NCBI GenBank assembly: GCA_000165425.1 | Contig: CT868068.1 | Location: 123,094 to 143,093 of the forward strand | Length of the DNA: 20,000 bases | Direction of reading: 5' to 3' | Source: Paramecium tetraurelia | Lineage: Eukaryota | In this document: positions 3,620 to 19,400 of the stretch, in pieces | Layout: the number at the start of each line of letters is the position of its first letter | Position numbering within the stretch: position 1 is the stretch's first letter | The notes under the pieces: model-generated | What the model was told of the DNA's origin: nothing | Seen by the model: only the letters and a program-made list of their open reading frames with translations | Databases searched by the model: none | Made by a program: the position numbers and the translations under genes

Positions 3620-6406
3620 ATGCTCATGCACTATCACTTAAATGGTTAGTAATAAGGTTCCTCTTCACGTTCGATGTCAATATCTATGGATGATTCAATC
3701 AATATGTAAATACAACCAATTGTTTAAAAAATGGTCGTTGTCAACTCTCATTAACTATTGGTGAGAAAACCATCTAACTAAGCCTAAGATATTGTTCATT
3801 CCCCCCCTACAGCCAGTTTAACTCCACAACAGCCATCAGAAAAACTTCCTGAAAAAGACATGAAGGATTTATTATTAATAGATGAAGAGCCAAGCATCAA
3901 AGAATAATCTATATAAATAACTCCAGAACCAAAAAATAAGAAAAAGCAAATCAAGGATAATGTAGCTAACGCGGAGATAATCATTGACGAAAAGCCTTAG
4001 AACTCTTACAGTGATGTACATTGGAGTAAATTAATTACATCCAAAACAAGTATCACTCGTCCATCATTCTAATTTCATTTTCTTTAAGACAAGGCTGCGG
4101 AATTCTCTATCAAAGTAACTTCTTTTGAGTGGCTCAAACCTAAATTACAAAATACATACTACTATATAAGTAGTGCTGTCTTAAGTGTTTACTTAAGTTT
4201 TTTCATCACATTAATGTTATTCGATTTAGAAGATGGAATGTATTAGCAACCAATCTACTAAGTGATTTTAATGGTATTTTGGTTGATAGATACTATTAAT
4301 TAAATACTTTTTATTCAATATAAAAATGGAGAGGAAATTATTTTAATGGAAGATCTAGTTGCGAGATACTGTAAATTTCAATCATTAATTGATATCTTGG
4401 GCATAATCCCTATCATATTTTGTTTAATTTCAAAAAGAATGCCTACTATTTAATTATTGCATCTCGTTAACATATGGAAAATTAGAAGAGTGTTTTATGA
4501 ATTGTAAATGTTAATAGGTAAATTCGCATTGTACATTTATTATATATTAGAACTCCATTTCGTTTAATTTATAGCTTTGACTATAATTCAATTTTCGTTG
4601 GATAAACATTTAAATTTTTTTGACGAATTCATTGTATTATTCTATAAATCAGAGAATGCTAATGCTCTTACTTATATCGTTAGGCTTCTCATTTTAATTT
4701 ATTATTGTTATTTTATACATAGATACAACTCTGAAGATAAGTGGAAACTGAATCAGATTTCAATTCAAAATAACACAAAGTAAAAAATTAATGGATATAT
4801 AAATAAATTAAAGAGTCAATCAACGGTTGATTTAAATTTCCTGGAATACTTACCTCAGTCATATGTTGAAGACTTCAAAAATTAACGTTATATGTAGATA
4901 CTCTCTAATATACCAATTTTTAAGTCTTCCTTTTCTGAGAAGACTCTCAAGGAAATTTGCAACCTTATTCAAGAATACACTTACAATCCTAATCAAACTA
5001 TCCTTCTTTAGCAGACTCCTAATCAATAACTGTACTTTATTTTATCAGGGGATGTCAGGATCTCCTAGAAAAGAGAAGGCACCTAAGCAAACTGTGAATT
5101 TAAATTAAAAGTGTTAGGTGAAGGTTAGATGTTCAATAACAAAGCTTTTTTCAAGAATTCTTTCTCGAACATTGCTGCTACTTCAATAGGATTCTCTTAA
5201 ATTGCTTAATTGGATGTTGAACTATTTTAGGAGTGTATAAAGAATCATCATTAGGAAAAATAGAAATACAAGATGATGTTGGATTAAATAGTATAATAGG
5301 AATTTTACAGTTTATGTTTGATGCGGTGTTATGCATGTGGTAAATTTCATGACATTGATGAATGTGATCATGTACACTATGTTCCTAAGAGATCTTTTTT
5401 AGTTTCTTACATCTAATCTAATGATATATAGGGAAGATTTCCAAAGAAGAGGATTAGATGTAGACAACAAAGAACGAAGTCATTCATATTAAAAATAGAG
5501 GAGAATGCTTTGCTCTACCAGTAATTGAATATTGAATCAGAGTTATCTGAAGAACACAGGCATTTAGAAGAGATGATAAGTATTCAATAATAGCATTATT
5601 TGAAAGAAGTTACAAATCCATACACGGAAAGATAAAACTCATTATTACAATCTTAATAAACTCCTCACATGGTATCTTAGTAATCTTTAAGAGAATCTAT
5701 ACAATCTCAATAACAGCCTGGACATTAACTAATGGATATTCCAAACATAAGTCCTGTTTAATATGTTCAACAGCCTCCCAGTGGAATTTCGCATAGTTCT
5801 TATGCTTAATTATTAAAAGATGCTTCTGTGAATCGCAAGAATTTCAATGGTTCTTCTGATAAGAATTCTAGTGGCAATGTTTTTTCATTACCCTACAGCA
5901 GCAATGGAAGCAAAACAAATCCGAATAATGTTATGTAGAATAAGGATAAGGAGGAATTGATAAGTATATAATTGAAGAAGGCCAAATTGAAAGACAGTGT
6001 ATATTACCATCAGAGGAGAATACAGAATCAAATAGAGAGTGAGGGTCCACTCACTCCATCTATGTATCAAAAGTGTCAAACCACAGCACCTTAGTAGTAG
6101 TAGACTAAGGCTTTCAGATCAGATCGTAAATCAAATTCCTGCATTTCTGAATCTGAGAAAGGAGAGTATCAAGTACAGTAACAACAAGAGAAACCAACAT
6201 CAAAGTATGGCATCGCCTCTTCCAAATTTACTGGGGAAACTGCAAAATAGTTTATGAGAAATCCTTTGGAAATGCCCAACATTGAATTCTACTAATCGTT
6301 TGAAAAGAGCAATCAGTATAGCGATTTTTTCCCCTAATACAATGTGGATTAAGCAATTGAAAGTTATAAACAATATTAATAATCTAGATCCAGTGCTCAC
6401 AAATGA
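3620..6406 (+). CDS. Ciliate-type CNBD ion-channel-like protein, 928 aa, with a degenerate pore
   Basis: Uninterrupted 929-codon frame. It has S1-S4-like helices (FWLIDTINQ; RYCKFQSLIDILGIIP; LLHLVNIWKIRRVF) and a C-linker/CNBD (FLEYLPQS..ILSNIPIFKSSFSEKTLKEICNLIQEYTYNPNQTI..LYFILSGDV..LGEGQMF). These are followed by a Cys/His knuckle (CYACGKFHDIDECDHVHYVP) and the ciliate channel tail motif FEKSNQYSDFFPQYNVDQAI. Confidence 0.85.
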
Positions 6407-8640: not shown

Positions 8641-9394
8641 TCATTAACAGCAATTTTCTTTTTCTTTTCTACAATTTGTTTTTTTTGTTATTGATTTGCT
8701 TGGTAAATCATCATCTAAAGTTAAATTATCTCCTTGTAATTGTTTAACATTTTTTTACTACTTGGAGGACATTGAACTAAAAATTTCTATTAATCTAGTT
8801 AATCTATACCACTAACTAAGTTGGAGAAGGCCTCTTCTACATTTAAGCCATTTTATGCTGAAGTTTCAATATACCCAATTTTATTTTATTAACAGAGTTT
8901 AGCTGCTTCTACACTTCTAACCATCTATAATCATTTTAAGGATATACTCTATCATTTGCTTAGTCTATTTTATTTCCAATCATCATGATTACAATATTTT
9001 TTGGAGCATACTCTTTTATTTCACTAAGCCATTTTTCTATGTTTGTAAAAGTTATTTCTCTTGTAATATCATAACAAACGAAAGCTCCCACTGCTCCTCT
9101 ATAATAGGCATTTGTTATTGCTCGATATCTTATATTGTTTAAATTTTACCTTTCTTATCCAGCAGTATCCCAAATCTAGCATTTCACACTTTTATTTTCA
9201 ACATTAATTGTCTTTGTTGAAAATTCAACTCCAATTGTGGGTTTGGAGTCTAAGATAAATTCATTTTTTACGAACCTTTACAAAATATTTGTTTTACCAA
9301 CTCCAGAATCTCCTAAAAATTTTTAATAAATTAATTTACCTATTAGGATTATTTTAAACAAGAAATCATACTCGTTTTCATTGCATCTAGTCAT
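8641..9394 (-). CDS. RAB11: Rab11-family small GTPase, 219 aa
   Basis: [62 protein letters not shown] and a C-terminal prenylation motif CCQ*. Introns 9313-9339 (27 nt), 9129-9149 (21), 8925-8947 (23) and 8787-8809 (23) leave exactly 220 codons. The DTAGQ Gln is encoded by TAA. Confidence 0.95.
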
Positions 9395-9670
9395 CAATAA
9401 TTTATTTAATAAAATTATGGAATTTGCTAATTTTTCTAAATTTATAAAAGTAGAATTATCATTACAATCCTAAAGATAAATTACCAATAATAAATTTACA
9501 TTTCTTCTTTTGTTAAAATGTATAAATAAGAATGATAACTAATTAATCATTGCAATAGAAAATTATGAGATTAAACTATACAATTTATACATATTTATAG
9601 TTTTATTTGGCTATAACAAATATTTTTATATCAATATATATATTATATACTGTATTATAACTAATAGTTT

Positions 9671-11171
9671 TCAAATTAATTAATTATTTAGTATCGTATA
9701 TAATCCCACGGATTCACAAATACTTTTAAACTAAATTTGATCAGCAACTAGATCTTCTTCTTCAATTTTATATAATGCCTCACTTACTAATTCAAGTAAT
9801 TACACCTCGATTCCTGACAAATTCACCTTGTCTTTGCTAATATAACCATCTTTATCTCCATCTAATTACCTGAAAATCTTTTTTATATTTAAATCAAACT
9901 AGCAAGTTTTAGAGTTATTAATTTTAGTTCTTGAGTCTTATCTTTACGACAGGTTGCTAGTGCTTCTATTGTTCTACTTTAATTCAATTTATTTTATATC
10001 ATCTTGATCCTATTTGTTATAAGGTTGTTAATAAAGTTATTCTTTACTAATTTAATTTTGAAACTTAGAATTATTTTAAATCGATTGTTCTCGTCTAATT
10101 TTAATAAATTAATTACTATTTCTATTCAATTTTTTTCTTTCTCTCAATTTAATCCGTAAATAGCTTTTTAACTTGCTATTATTGAGTTTATTTTTTATTT
10201 TCTTCTTTTTAGTATACATTATTTATTTACGGATTAGAATACATTTTTTAGAATTCTTGTTTAAGCTGTTCAAATTTGTATTGTTTTCTTTCCTTTTCTT
10301 AAATGTAAGGCTTTTCGTTGACTGGTGTGTTTGATCTTTCTTTTTTATTGCTGGTTGATCTATTTTGCTAAGAGTGATTACGACTGCTTATGTCTGATCT
10401 TCTTGGTTAAAAGGATCTGAGTGATGATTGCTCTTTTTAAAGCTAAAAAACCTATTATTATTTTTTTATATGTTATTCTTCTCCCTTTGATTTTGTTTAA
10501 TAGCCGATATTAAATAATGAATTGTCTTCTACTTTCTTTTTTTATTGGATGGCACTTTTAAAATTTGGAGATATATTGGTTTTAGGTGTGGTTTCTGAAA
10601 CTATTTACTACCCCTTATAAATTTAATTTTATTTTTGTTATTCAATCTTATTTTATTGTTGAGTATTTGTTTCTCCATATAGTTTATCATTTGTATTGAT
10701 GGACCTAGGATTGTTTTAATTATTTGCTAATTATTAGAATAACTTACACCTAGCTGATGTTGGCAAATTCCATTACATTTTAGAATTTGAATTGGCCTCT
10801 ATCTTCCTATTAATTTTTTTCTACCATTCTTCATAACTCTTTTATGCTGATACCTAATTCTCATCAGAACTGGCTGATATTATAAGGCCAAAGTCGCTCT
10901 GTTTACTACTCCTTGTTTGAGATGGGCCTTTGTTCAAAAATTATTACTTATTAAATTCTGCAAATCTAGGCGAGGGTTCACGTTTTAGTTATTGCTTAAT
11001 TTAATTTACGAGATATTCTAAGCAATCATTACCAAGTTTGTATCTTTAACAAAAAAGCTCAACTTCTAATTCAACATCCTCTCCTTCATATACTTTTATC
11101 TCTTCGGTCCCATCTTCCATCTATAAACTAACTATAGCAATTGGTTGAGATTCAGCATTTGTCATAGACAT
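9671..11171 (-). CDS. Q/K/N-rich protein with a small N-terminal domain and a C-terminal EF-hand, ~490 aa
   Basis: N-terminus MSMTNAESQPIAIVSLQMEDGTEEIKVYEGEDVELEVELFCQRYKL. One required 22-nt intron near 10095-10116 and a possible 21-nt intron near 10727-10747. The C-terminal IKKIFRQLDGDKDGYISKDKV is an EF-hand-like loop (DxDxDGxI). Confidence 0.75.
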
Positions 11172-15196: not shown

Positions 15197-16114
15197 TCAA
15201 GCTATTTATTACAGTTTTTCTTTGTATAATGAGTTCAATAAAATTCTAGATGGGCACTTTTTCGGATTCTTGTCATCAAAGTCTTTTTAGGTTATAGAAT
15301 TAAATTAACCTTCAAAAGCAGGAATCATTTTAATTTTCTAAAAATTAAATTCAGCAATTTACTAATTCAGGATCAACTTTATTAAGTTTTCCAGTTTAAT
15401 ACGGTTTGTAAAAAGCATTATTTGTAGATTGATGAATAAAAGGTAGCTCTGGAGATATTGGGCTTTTGAAACTACTTTTATTTGCAGTTGTTAGAAATTC
15501 TTCCCTTGGAATTGGTTTTTTATAGAAGTTATCTTGATAAGTAGAATGAGTAGTCATAGGCATATCTACGACAGTTGGATGATGAGGTGGATTAATTTTG
15601 AGAGATGACATTCCTCCTCCAGCATAATCAAGCTAAATATTTATCAAAGATAAGTACTCGATATGCTGATGAACTACTAAATGGGATTAAAAACACTTTT
15701 TATTCTGGTTTTAAAGACTCTGCTGGCTTAGCATCAGGATGACCTTAATATGTACTCTAAATTTATGGAGTTATATAATACTCTTTATATAGTATCTATA
15801 TCCATTGGCAATTAACTCTTGTAAGTTACATTGTGATCAATTAGAGGTATTTACCTTTATTTACCATGTGTAATAAATTCCCTTTAATATAATGATTCTT
15901 ATCCTTTCTTAAAATCATTGGACAGAAGCATTTTAGGACATTTACATTATCCGCAAATGCATCGGCCGCAAATACAATCTCCTTTTAGATGGTTGAAGAA
16001 TGCTTCATTCTTAACTAATAATTTTCCAAAATGAGTCGACAACAGCTGACTCTAGTAAGTATTGGATTCTAGTGTTGAATATCGCGAATTGGCTTTGTAA
16101 TCTTATTCACTCAT
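15197..16114 (-). CDS. SAXO/STOP-domain (FAM154-like) ciliary microtubule-stabilising protein, 280 aa
   Basis: N-terminal CICGRCICGQCKCP followed by repeated Mn-like motifs SLYQREF, TIQRSTY, SAYRLDY, STYQDNF, STNNAFY and SITQKDF. Three 25-nt introns leave 281 codons. Confidence 0.8.
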
Positions 16115-16171
16115 AATATATATTAATATTTATAAAATGATCTTCATTTTGAATATAACATTTATTCCTAC

Positions 16172-17234
16172 TCAATAATTAAGGATCCGTTTCATCCTTT
16201 CAACATCCTCGTTTATATATTAGGCTTATTATATTTAGTCATCATATTGAGATAATAACTAAAGTATTTAAGATCTCTAATGATTTTAACAGGAATCATT
16301 TTGGTTTAGGAATATTTCTGATATGGAATTTGAACTTCCATCGAAGGTGTTATCTAGCTAACTTTTCATGCTATCATCCAAAAATCGTTAAAATTATTCA
16401 CTGTTAACTAATTCCAAAGCACATTTAAAGAGTTCTTTTTCAACAACTTTTTTTTATATTCCTCTTCTTTTGATTGGCACAATATTATTAATCCTTAATT
16501 CATATTCATAAATTAATTAATTTGAATCCAAACTACTTTTGATTTCCGAGAAACTTAGTTAATATGAATATTCTGGATGTTTATCCATAAATTCTTTGAA
16601 ATCTCCTTTACTGTTTACTTGCTAAGGATAATTCATTGCTTCATCCTATTTAAAGACTATTTTTTACAAGAGATATTTTGATTAAATCAAGAAAGAGCAC
16701 CTGTAATAAATCTCTTAATACGTTTAAATCTTTTTTCTTATCAAAATATTGCGCTCCGATTACAGCTTTAAGGGTCTAGGCTAATATCTTTGAATTGTTT
16801 CTAGAATTATTTAGATTCCCCATATTACTTTAAATCTGAATTAGGGTTGATTGAAACGAACATTTAAGACTTCAATCCTAATTAAACTGCAATATCTGCT
16901 AAATTTTTCTCTGATAAAACCAATTGCTTCAACCTCCTAATTTCAGAGTAGGTTTTGAATGTTTTATGAGTTTTATTGGGTAGACTAGTAAAATAATTTA
17001 ATTCTTTAAGTCATACTCTTAAAAAAAAAAGAAATCATTGTAATAAAAGTCGATCAGATCTTAACCTAATTCAATCAAATTTTCGTTGATGCCTTATTTT
17101 AAAGGATTATCTTTATTTCTTGACATATACTCTTAATGGTATTATTTGAAAGTCATGGCTTTTTTTAGCAACTCAGGGTGTCGAAATTCCAATAATTTAT
17201 TCGTGGTTGAGTATTGTTTGTGGTTAGATTGCAT
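16172..17234 (-). CDS. RNase III domain + dsRBD-like protein, predicted catalytically inactive, 326 aa
   Basis: FRHPELLKKAMT..NENLIELGQDLIDF..LKQLVLSEKNLADIAVQLGL..KILAQTLKAVIGAQYFD matches the RNase III fold. NSKGDFKEF..YEYELRINN..RGIQKKVVEKELFKCALE is dsRBD-like. Introns 16985-17016 (32 nt), 16801-16828 (28) and 16646-16667 (22) leave 327 codons. Confidence 0.85.
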
Positions 17235-17281
17235 ATAAATATATTAAATATAAATAAATTTAGAGTTAAAATTTTAATCAA

Positions 17282-19400
17282 TCATATTTTTCTATGATAG
17301 AACACAAGGTAAGCATCTATGCGAGATATTTGATCATATGAAAGTCTTGCGATTTCGTCATCATTGTATAGAAAAAACTAAAGAGATTGATAACAGGATA
17401 AAAATACTTATGAATTACGCAAACATAGTGACCTTAGTCAATGGTTCCAGAGTGTACAATCACTGCTTATAAATGATACTTTGTATCAACGATATCTGTG
17501 GAACAACAGCTAGAAATGATGATTGGAACTTATACTTTTTGATGTTTATGATTAAGGAAAATCATCTTGCAATAAACCTCTAATTTAATTTTTAGATGCA
17601 ATTAAATATATGAATGTATGCATATCTAGCTTAAACACTACACTATAATTGCAAAATTGGAGTTTATCAATAAATCATATAACAGCATTAAATTGGAACA
17701 ATCTTAATTAATAAAGTGTGATTTATCTGAAAAACATAATAAGTTTAATCAATGGCTTTAGGAATCAAACAGAAAAAGAATTCAATAAAGGAGGCATTCT
17801 TAAATTTGCAAACCAAGAAACTGTATAGATTATAAGAAATTTAACTTAATAGTAATTTTCTAAAGAATATATTTCAATAGTCATTATCTTGAGGCTTTAT
17901 CTTATTTCGATCGAATTCTAATTGACTCAATTCCTCTAATCTTAGTTAATTATAGAATTCATAACCAATATTAATGAATACAGGAGGGAAGATGATTTCT
18001 ATTTGAAAAATTGATCTTCATCAAAATTAATTTTATTTTGATTTCGACTTTAATTAATGCTCAAATTTAATATTCAAATGTTTAATCTCTAATTTGACGA
18101 TTTTCTACTAAATCGTTACATTATTCTACTATATTCACCTGTCTCATGTTATCTCTAGATATTACATTGCATTAAAGTCGCCATTATTGATCGTTTACGC
18201 GAAAACCTTTTAAAGAATAATCATATGTTTATACTTATATACCCTCATCTATTAAAAATGATTCTCATTTTTATCTAAAGGTGATTCATTAAAATTTTTC
18301 ATCTTCAAAATTTCGAAAGTTAAGTTTAATCAGATGGTATTTTAAGTTTTTCTTAACAAACAATTTCCCCAATTGCTGAATCATTAATTTGTGATTAAAA
18401 TCTCCCTTAATGGTTTAATCCCACAAAAATTAACCAGTTTAAACAGAATCCAACGAATAATAGCAATCCATTCGTGAGTTAAAGATGTTGGAATTATTAA
18501 TTGTAAAACACATTCCTAAGAAACAAATTGAATAAAACTTGTATAATAAATTAAATTAATGAATTTAAAAGAGTTGAAATTACAAATATCGTTCTTTCGA
18601 TCTATAACAAATACTTCATTAAGATGTTTAATTTGTGCTTAGGATGTACAATTCAATCGAAAAGAACTATTATTTAAAACAGAATAAAACGCTCACTTTT
18701 TTCTTATAATCATCTAATGATTGTAATACAATATTATTTGATTTACATTATATTATTAATCTAATTCAAATTGGCTTTGATTTAGGATATAATTACTTAT
18801 AAGGTACTTTGTATTTGAATGTTATTGTTTAAAATTCAATTTGCAAAAATATTAAAATCAATAGTTGAAGGTAGGAAAAGTTAAGTTTTTAACCTTTGCC
18901 TTTAATAGAATACCAAAATTTTGTTAAAAATATTTTAGACAATGTTAGAACAATTTGTTGATAAATAACAAATGATAGAGTCTTAATATGTGTTTCTCCT
19001 TAACAGGATTAATAAATAAATAAATAAAAATAAACTATTAGAAGTTAATTCCTCACTGCTTTGAGAACATCACTAGAATTTATAAGAGAGGATAAGGAAA
19101 AGATGTTCGATTTTAACAGCATGGATTACAATAATATTAATTTTCTTTTTATCAAGCCAAACATAAGTTAAATAGCATTACAACTCTGAGCAATAAGCTT
19201 AAGTGAAAATGTATGAAATTTGGCTATATATTTATTTTAGTTAAAGGGACTTTTGAGCAGAACAATTTTCCATCACTAAAATAAATGCATCTGATGTATA
19301 ATAGACTCTTGGTTAAATTATAATTGAGGTAACAATTGCTTTTCCAATTCCTTCAAAGTTAAAAATACTAAAAACTGTTTAATCAGAAGTAGATTTAAAG
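17282..19400 (-). pseudogene. Degenerate ubiquitin-specific protease (USP, peptidase C19)
   Basis: Clear His box KYHLQAVIVHSGTIDQGHY (17481-17425) and C-terminus FLYNDDEI..IDAYLVFYHRKI* (TGA 17284-17282). A Cys-box remnant SNCYLN lies at 19340-19323. The intervening ~1.8 kb has repeated TGA and frame breaks that I could not fix with short introns. The 5' boundary is approximate. Confidence 0.65.

Follow-up and report, generated by a model that had tools for sequence, protein, structure and literature searches.

The 20,000-nt stretch of Paramecium tetraurelia DNA studied here (the window; contig CT868068.1, positions 123,094 to 143,093 of the forward strand, with position 1 as its first letter) carries on its minus strand, at 17234-16172, a gene of four exons and three introns that encodes a pseudo-RNase III. 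The RNase III fold is kept in this protein, and its catalytic losses are fixed in a Paramecium family of three paralogue groups. We consider it fairly probable that this 326-amino-acid protein, with an abolished two-metal site, one divergent double-stranded RNA-binding domain (dsRBD) and a tail rich in Gln and acidic residues, is a non-catalytic binder of double-stranded RNA (dsRNA).

Gene model and transcript

The gene starts at an ATG at 17234-17232 and ends at a TGA stop at 16174-16172 (minus strand). Between these two points, a scan for introns of the strict form GTA..TAG and of 18-44 nt returned exactly three candidates, whose excision gives a 981-nt coding sequence (CDS) of 326 amino acids under genetic code 6. 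The surrounding DNA is AT-rich (GC 0.22-0.31), and coding frames appear in it only with the ciliate code. The gene model is as follows, all features being on the minus strand.

16118-17239, minus: spliced mRNA, minimum extent (X5 contig, 16118-16984 plus 17017-17239, with 22 and 28 nt absent)
17017-17234, minus: exon 1, from Met1 to the first two bases of codon 73 (translation and RNA contigs)
16985-17016, minus: intron 1, 32 nt, GTA..TAG (joint 16984/17017 in the X3 and X5 contigs and in one X20 read)
16829-16984, minus: exon 2 (translation and RNA contigs)
16801-16828, minus: intron 2, 28 nt, GTA..TAG (missing from the X3 and X5 contigs, joint 16800/16829)
16668-16800, minus: exon 3, last residue 169 (translation and RNA contigs)
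16646-16667, minus: intron 3, 22 nt, GTA..TAG (missing from the X3 and X5 contigs, joint 16645/16668)
16172-16645, minus: exon 4, residues 170-326 and the TGA stop (translation)

Transcript evidence came from four public RNA runs (X3, X5, X19 and X20) mapped on 15600-17800. In the contigs of X3 and X5, which belong to two different studies, all three predicted introns were removed exactly, and the entire CDS lay within the single X5 contig 16118-17239. Contigs that lack exactly these introns can originate in spliced RNA only, and the joint of intron 1 ends in CT..AC on the plus strand, that is in GT..AG on the gene strand. The stranded oligo-dT RNA-seq runs X19 and X20 covered the gene at a depth of about 1-10 with the first mate always on the plus strand, which indicates minus-strand RNA; the orientation of the reads was the same over the downstream minus-strand gene. 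Raw reads were too sparse for junction counts, one X20 read lacking intron 1 and the other two junctions being uncovered. Read depth dropped to about 0.1-0.3 in the bin 17228-17301, thus placing an in-frame ATG at 17285 outside the transcript and the start at 17234. A single spliced and polyadenylated mRNA is made from the gene. An earlier note on this DNA had described an intact spliced open reading frame, and this description was borne out by the 326 codons, the three introns and the splicing seen in the X3 and X5 contigs.

The public P. tetraurelia annotation cuts the gene in two at the 22-nt intron 3. The first piece, P0008 (GSPATT00037904001, macronuclear protein), has 177 amino acids and corresponds to the spliced exons 1-3 followed by eight residues of read-through into intron 3, and the second, P0010 (154 amino acids), is exon 4 translated from an internal Met. 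Each of the seven close homologues in other aurelia species continues across the exon 3/4 junction. The RNA contigs, which span the splice sites, show the single-gene model to be the correct one. The corrected model matters because the split annotation conceals the dsRBD from domain-based surveys. Some homologue models contain additional residues: the P. octaurelia model P0001 has an 11-amino-acid in-frame insert exactly at the exon 1/2 junction, and P0007, the model of the P. tetraurelia ohnologue, has a short in-frame insert exactly at the exon 3/4 junction. Their positions suggest that these inserts are retained introns and that intron positions are conserved. The homologue model P0011 likewise has a short insert at an exon junction of the window gene that looks like a retained intron.

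The RNase III fold

The features of the encoded protein were placed on the gene as follows.

16668-17198, minus: RNase III-like domain, about residues 13-169, with introns 1 and 2 inside it (Pfam, AF2 and VIA)
17061-17087, minus: degenerate signature NENLIELGQ in place of NERLEFLGD (E38 kept; E41 to I, F42 to E, D45 to Q)
16764-16784, minus: LAQTLKA motif (D114 to Q, E117 to K; Lys in 13 of 13 family rows)
16400-16621, minus: dsRBD-like domain, about residues 178-251 (P0002 model, VIA and invariant residues)
16175-16399, minus: Gln/Ser/Asp-rich C-terminal tail, about residues 252-326 (composition, lower conservation and low confidence in the P0002 model)

P0008, which covers residues 1-169 of the window protein, matched PF14622 (Ribonucleas_3_3) with an E-value of 1.6e-12 (48.2 bits for a cut-off of 35) and PF00636 (Ribonuclease_3) with 27.1 bits for a cut-off of 27. 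With single exons as queries nothing was significant in Pfam, the best match being PF14622 at E 0.024 for exon 3. The AF2 model of P0008, built from a 49-row alignment, was an all-helical RNase III fold with a mean predicted local distance difference test (pLDDT) of 91 and a predicted template modelling score (pTM) of 0.86. In a Foldseek search of the PDB with this model, bacterial RNase III came first (1jfz, 1.3e-5), followed by the enzymes of Campylobacter, Thermotoga, Mycobacterium tuberculosis and Escherichia coli, with human mL44 (3.8e-4), Arabidopsis RTL4 (4.9e-4), Rnt1 (2.1e-3) and Dicer and Drosha (about 3e-3) lower down. We also used VIA, a structural aligner independent of Foldseek. 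It superimposed the N-domain model on Thermotoga maritima RNase III with Z 17.1 (root-mean-square deviation 2.2 over 149 residues) and on the E. coli, Campylobacter and Aquifex enzymes with Z 16.3-15.4, then on Dicer RNase IIIb (15.2-14.6), human mL44 (14.3), yeast mL57 (12.3) and a Trypanosoma brucei RECC1 chain (11.4), Z being 4.4 or less from row 32 onward.

One of the VIA matches of the RNase III-like model (row 27) was chain 9ya0_DA of the Toxoplasma gondii pre-conoid ring, with Z 9.9 over 152 residues at 14% identity. The model comparison raises the idea that another alveolate may use an RNase III-like fold as a building block of its cytoskeleton.

Loss of the catalytic site

The E. coli numbering was carried over to the window protein by HMMER alignment with Aquifex RNase III and by the 49-row alignment. 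Both place E41 at I54, D45 at Q58, D114 at Q133 and E117 at K136, and the E38 equivalent is retained as E51. None of the four carboxylates of the two-metal endonuclease site is present in the window protein; the claim of the earlier note that all four metal ligands are replaced (I/Q/Q/K) was reproduced by the two alignments. Its coordinates for LAQTLKA (16784-16764) were also right, and those for the first signature needed a correction, the span 17087-17061, read as eight letters, in fact holding the nine codons NENLIELGQ.

The same losses were found in the Paramecium family, in which E41, D45 and E117 were each absent from 13 of 13 members examined, E117 being replaced by Lys in every case. 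Consistent with the reading of the earlier note, the replacements are old and fixed. Among the non-family matches that cover the columns, E41 and D45 were kept in 34 of 34 and E117 in 36 of 36. The fourth position is more variable: D114 is Gln in paralogue groups 1 and 2 (described below), and in group 3 Glu in one member and Asp in two; in non-family matches this column also holds D, S or N, all of them with E41, D45 and E117 kept. The Lys at E117 recurred in short library fragments and in a metagenome contig (L001).

In Aquifex RNase III, E40, D44, D107 and E110 coordinate two Mg ions, and E110, equivalent to E117, bridges both ions and is functionally essential, as stated in an excerpt of PMC3867540. 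According to their titles, PDB entries 1rc7 and 1yyo are the Aquifex E110K enzyme complexed with dsRNA. Such crystals indicate that Lys at this position is compatible with binding.

By analogy with all RNase III domains, the Paramecium protein probably dimerises. At the dimer interface, the position of the 'ball' Phe holds Glu in groups 1 and 2 and Val or Leu in group 3, and with Phe changed to Glu a modified or heterologous partner is conceivable. In an alternative reading, the protein would supply the dead subunit of a heterodimer, its partner being a paralogue or a catalytically active RNase III with a single domain, and the pair would nick at one site, as has been proposed for KREPB4/5 and KREN1-3 in trypanosome editosomes. 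RNase III domains are dimeric and heterodimers with one dead site nick dsRNA (excerpt of PMC3867540); the replaced Phe could favour a changed partner, and the RECC1 chain of T. brucei is among the structural matches (Z 11.4). All 13 family members examined are dead, however, and we regard a heterodimeric nickase as improbable.

The dsRBD and the tail

The C-terminal half was modelled with AF2 on an orthologue, P0002, which is 67% identical to the window protein. With a 7-row alignment, pLDDT was below 50 over residues 1-177 of P0002 and only the dsRBD part was used, in which residues 180-249 formed an alpha-beta-beta-beta-alpha arrangement with pLDDT of about 80. When this part (residues 174-258) was compared by VIA, the first 30 rows were all dsRBDs (Z 9.6-8.1), including those of DCL4, R2D2, HYL1, TRBP, Loqs, Staufen, PKR, bacterial RNase III and human mL44. 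The HMMER alignments to Aquifex RNase III were collinear through the C-terminal half too. At the start of helix 2, the window protein has GIQKKVVEK in the position of the bacterial G.SKK.AE, so that the G..KK..E stretch is retained, and K181, F184, G230, K233 and E237 were invariant in 11 aligned rows. Beyond the domain, residues 251-326 contain 13 Q, 10 S, 12 D+E and 6 K+R. The architecture that emerges from Pfam and AF2 for the N-domain and from the orthologue model for the dsRBD is of class 1, with one RNase III domain followed by one predicted dsRBD, and it agrees with the layout, tail included, that the earlier note had read from the sequence.

A special case of the dsRNA-binder explanation, put forward in the earlier note, is that the protein is a cofactor or a competitor of Dicer-like enzymes, either supplying a dsRBD to Dcl2, Dcl3 or Dcl5 or sequestering their dsRNA. 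According to the excerpt of PMC5871716, there are eight genes for Dicer or Dicer-like proteins in Paramecium, and two of these proteins, Dcl2 and Dcl3, are without dsRBD. The restriction of the family to Paramecium and its multiplication into three groups fit such a role, and so does the resemblance of the modelled domain to the dsRBDs of the Dicer partners R2D2, HYL1, TRBP and Loqs (Z 9.3-9.0). However, all dsRBDs score alike in VIA, which makes this likeness non-specific. Known Dicer partners are moreover built of dsRBDs and have no RNase III domain, and the gene is named in no paper found by our literature searches. A Dicer-related role is compatible with the observations, and we consider it rather unlikely.

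The question of a mitochondrial ribosomal protein

A dead RNase III domain followed by a dsRBD is also the architecture of mL44, so that the protein could instead be an mL44/mL57-like component of the mitoribosome or of its assembly. The Pfam model of the mL44 endonuclease domain, PF22935, indeed matched P0008 with 34.5 bits for a cut-off of 27, and human mL44 was a good structural match for both the N-domain (Z 14.3) and the dsRBD (Z 9.2). However, the PF22935 match appears not to be specific. When ten non-family RNase III with intact E41, D45 and E117 were scanned as controls, six passed PF22935 as well, at 30.6-42.7 bits, and three more matched below the cut-off. PF14622 clearly outscored PF22935 in the window protein and in every control, and it was the top Pfam model in all of them except one control, P0034, in which dsrm was higher. 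A search of the PDB sequences with the family profile gave nine matches at E <= 10 (best 1.5e-4), bacterial RNase III only, with no mitoribosome chain among them. The earlier note had named grouping with mL44 as an outcome that would speak against its reading, and such grouping thus remained weakly supported.

The N-terminus points in the same direction. In the window protein the fold starts at residue 9-12, as it does in bacterial enzymes (chain residues 8-16), whereas it starts at residue 79 in human mL44, 103 in yeast mL44, 71 in yeast mL57 and 105 in the Neurospora chain. The window protein therefore lacks the N-terminal extension seen in the mitoribosomal chains (71-105), and all family members have an N-terminus too short for a presequence, which upholds the remark of the earlier note on this point. 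The family was not found outside Paramecium in the protein searches, and the presence of mL44 in the last eukaryotic common ancestor is given as uncertain in the excerpt of PMC7947838.

We also looked at what is reported for ciliate mitoribosomes. The terms mL44, mL57, RNase III, ribonuclease and dsRBD do not occur in the main text of the Tetrahymena mitoribosome paper PMC7326499, nor do mL44, mL57, mL43 or RNase in three of its supplementary files, among which the protein table is perhaps not included; mL44, mL57 and RNase III do not occur in PMC8998825. No Tetrahymena mitoribosome chain was present among the structural matches listed by Foldseek and VIA, which is no proof of absence. A mitochondrial mL44 identity has little support, and we consider a mitoribosomal function quite unlikely.

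A family of Paramecium proteins

We searched 1.84 billion representative proteins with a profile of seven homologues and obtained 50 matches at E <= 0.001. Those below 1e-10 were all from Paramecium, two of them being the window's own pieces, P0008 and P0010. The full-length matches above 1e-10 were bacterial-type RNase III with E41, D45 and E117 kept, and a few short fragments carried the Lys of the family. A wider profile run against a 5.8-billion-sequence library gave 14 matches, of which 11 were from Paramecium (P. tetraurelia, P. octaurelia, P. primaurelia, P. pentaurelia, P. sonneborni and P. bursaria) and three were unnamed proteins with the layout of RNase III plus dsrm. A metagenome scan added one relative, on contig L001 (2103 nt) of an uncultured organism with the ciliate code. 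This gene (48-483 and onward) is spread over two frames, as if by an intron, and its product resembles group 3, with TNEDWIIIGNQ and LSDCFKA in the two motifs (E41I, D45N, D114 kept, E117K). No relative was present among the 264 pattern matches of a scan of viral contigs. In the searches made, the family was found only in Paramecium, plus this one metagenome ciliate contig. Separately, RNase III clusters of giant viruses and Bacillota had come up as candidate relatives (atlas scores 0.92-0.89) and received no further support.

The tree was calculated from 15 family rows and 13 of the 36 non-family RNase III rows of the alignment, short fragments being omitted. The family formed one clade (100/100) with a long stem and three paralogue groups: group 1 consisted of two ohnologue clades, group 2 of P. 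primaurelia and P. pentaurelia sequences, and group 3 included P. bursaria. The window protein grouped with the P. octaurelia copy (100/100), and then with the P. primaurelia copy. P. tetraurelia and P. octaurelia have each kept the two ohnologues. The catalytic replacements common to all groups are thus older than the split from P. bursaria.

The RNase III domain of the window protein was 79% and 80% identical to that of its two orthologues; the values were 72% and 69% for the dsRBD part and 64% and 41% for the tail. Selection is indicated indirectly by this gradient, by the survival of the two ohnologues in two species, by the splicing of every intron and by catalytic replacements common to all groups. 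The loss of catalytic residues in all 13 members, together with the fact that the dead domain is the best conserved part, argues against neutral decay. A decaying or functionless ohnologue, its frame open by chance, could nevertheless be suspected on three grounds: the window gene belongs to the faster-evolving ohnologue clade, the oligo-dT runs X19 and X20 show low expression, and open frames persist longer in a genome where TGA is the sole stop codon. Against this, 326 codons are open across three introns that are all spliced, P. octaurelia and P. primaurelia have kept orthologues, the degree of conservation differs between the domains (79-80%, 69-72% and 41-64%), and the catalytic replacements are family-wide and hence not recent damage. 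Decay appears to us highly improbable.

A probable non-catalytic dsRNA-binding protein

Taking these results together, we favour a pseudo-RNase III that binds dsRNA. Having lost its metal ligands, the protein would be incapable of cleaving RNA. Two parts of it would bind dsRNA: the dsRBD, with its KK..E stretch retained, and the valley of the lost catalytic site, in which phosphate may be contacted by the invariant Lys instead of Mg. The protein would probably act as a dimer, outside the mitochondrial matrix, and its role would be to hold, shield or present dsRNA to other enzymes and not to process it.

Several observations weigh against this reading. The AF2 alignment of P0008 consists mostly of bacterial RNase III, so that the likeness of the model to these enzymes is partly built in and the order of the structural matches is no phylogeny. 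Pfam dsrm (PF00035) was unmatched on exon 4 at E <= 10, as well as on P0010 and on all eight full-length family proteins scanned at E <= 1, and the dsRBD fold was modelled on the orthologue P0002, not on the window's own protein. With the interface Phe changed to Glu, homodimerisation is uncertain. The evolutionary rate of the window's ohnologue clade is about double that of the sister clade, with a tetraurelia-octaurelia path of 0.35 compared with 0.17. To these should be added the PF22935 match, despite its doubtful specificity.

Structural or partner subunits with a dead RNase III fold are already known (mL44/mL57, KREPB4/5), and the family described here, lineage-restricted and multi-copy, occurs in an organism whose genome rearrangement relies on several classes of small RNAs derived from dsRNA. 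As the excerpt of PMC5871716 has Dcl2 and Dcl3 without dsRBD, the gene is a concrete candidate for a missing dsRNA-handling factor. A more specific proposal, which we offer as a rather unlikely speculation, is that this family of dead RNase III plus dsRBD proteins provides dsRNA-holding subunits for the dsRBD-less Dcl2, Dcl3 or Dcl5, or for the feeding-induced RNA interference pathway, and sets which long dsRNAs are diced or protected in genome rearrangement. The finding would be an ordinary one if the protein proved to be merely structural or mitochondrial.

Neighbouring genes

Upstream of the pseudo-RNase III gene, 17281-17688 (minus) holds the 3' part of a gene for a ubiquitin C-terminal hydrolase (USP; PF00443, E 2.3e-7). 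A few X20 reads over 17376-17597 have their first mate on the minus strand, opposite to what is expected for a minus-strand USP gene, and an antisense transcript is possible there. The downstream neighbour, 15351-16147 (minus), encodes a Cys-rich CICGRCICGQCKCP stretch and repeated ..FYK(K)P.. motifs, and had no Pfam match at E <= 0.001. It is transcribed (depth 6-12) and is joined to the RNase III-like gene in one X3 contig, which indicates very tight gene spacing. Other open reading frames of the window, at 3620-6403 (plus), 8714-9592 (minus) and 9674-10864 (minus), represent ordinary Paramecium gene content, with cyclic-nucleotide-binding, Ras/Rab GTPase (E 5e-42) and weak EF-hand domains.

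Comparison with known systems

The closest known systems by sequence and structure are the bacterial class-1 RNase III (Rnc), which have the same order of RNase III domain and dsRBD, collinear from the first helix, and gave the best matches in both respects (PDB profile E 1.5e-4, Foldseek 1.3e-5, Z 17.1-15.4). Unlike them, the Paramecium protein has E41, D45, D114 and E117 replaced, a dsRBD too divergent for dsrm and an additional tail of about 75 amino acids, and is encoded by a eukaryotic gene with three introns. The E110K mutant of Aquifex RNase III offers a parallel for the catalytic site, with Lys at the same essential Glu and the mutant still on dsRNA in the crystals described by the PDB titles; the best single-sequence PDB match of an orthologue was an E110K chain (15.8 bits compared with 14.1 for the wild type, both with marginal E-values). 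In contrast to the engineered E117K and E110K, the Lys of the Paramecium proteins is natural and family-invariant, and is accompanied by the loss of three further ligands. The E117K allele of E. coli is rnc70.

Dead RNase III folds also occur in mL44 and mL57, and mL44 has a following dsRBD as well. The Paramecium protein differs from mL44 by the absence of an N-terminal extension, by sequence searches that favour bacterial RNase III and by belonging to a family seen only in Paramecium. Plant RNC1 is another dead RNase III fold. KREPB4 and KREPB5 of the trypanosome editosomes are mitochondrial and carry PUF and zinc-finger modules instead of a dsRBD. Their RNase III sites are nonfunctional and they are thought to pair with active partners (excerpt of PMC3867540). 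In Paramecium itself, Dcl1 has a second RNase III domain with mutated catalytic residues, according to the excerpt of PMC5871716, but Dcl1 is a two-domain Dicer-like protein, whereas the window protein has a single domain in a class-1 layout with a dsRBD.

Public databases name the proteins of this family only 'RNase III domain-containing', and our literature searches on the gene identifiers and on Paramecium RNase III and small-RNA topics returned no paper on the family. Pseudo-RNase III are a known kind of protein, of which this family is a new, lineage-restricted member with the class-1 layout.

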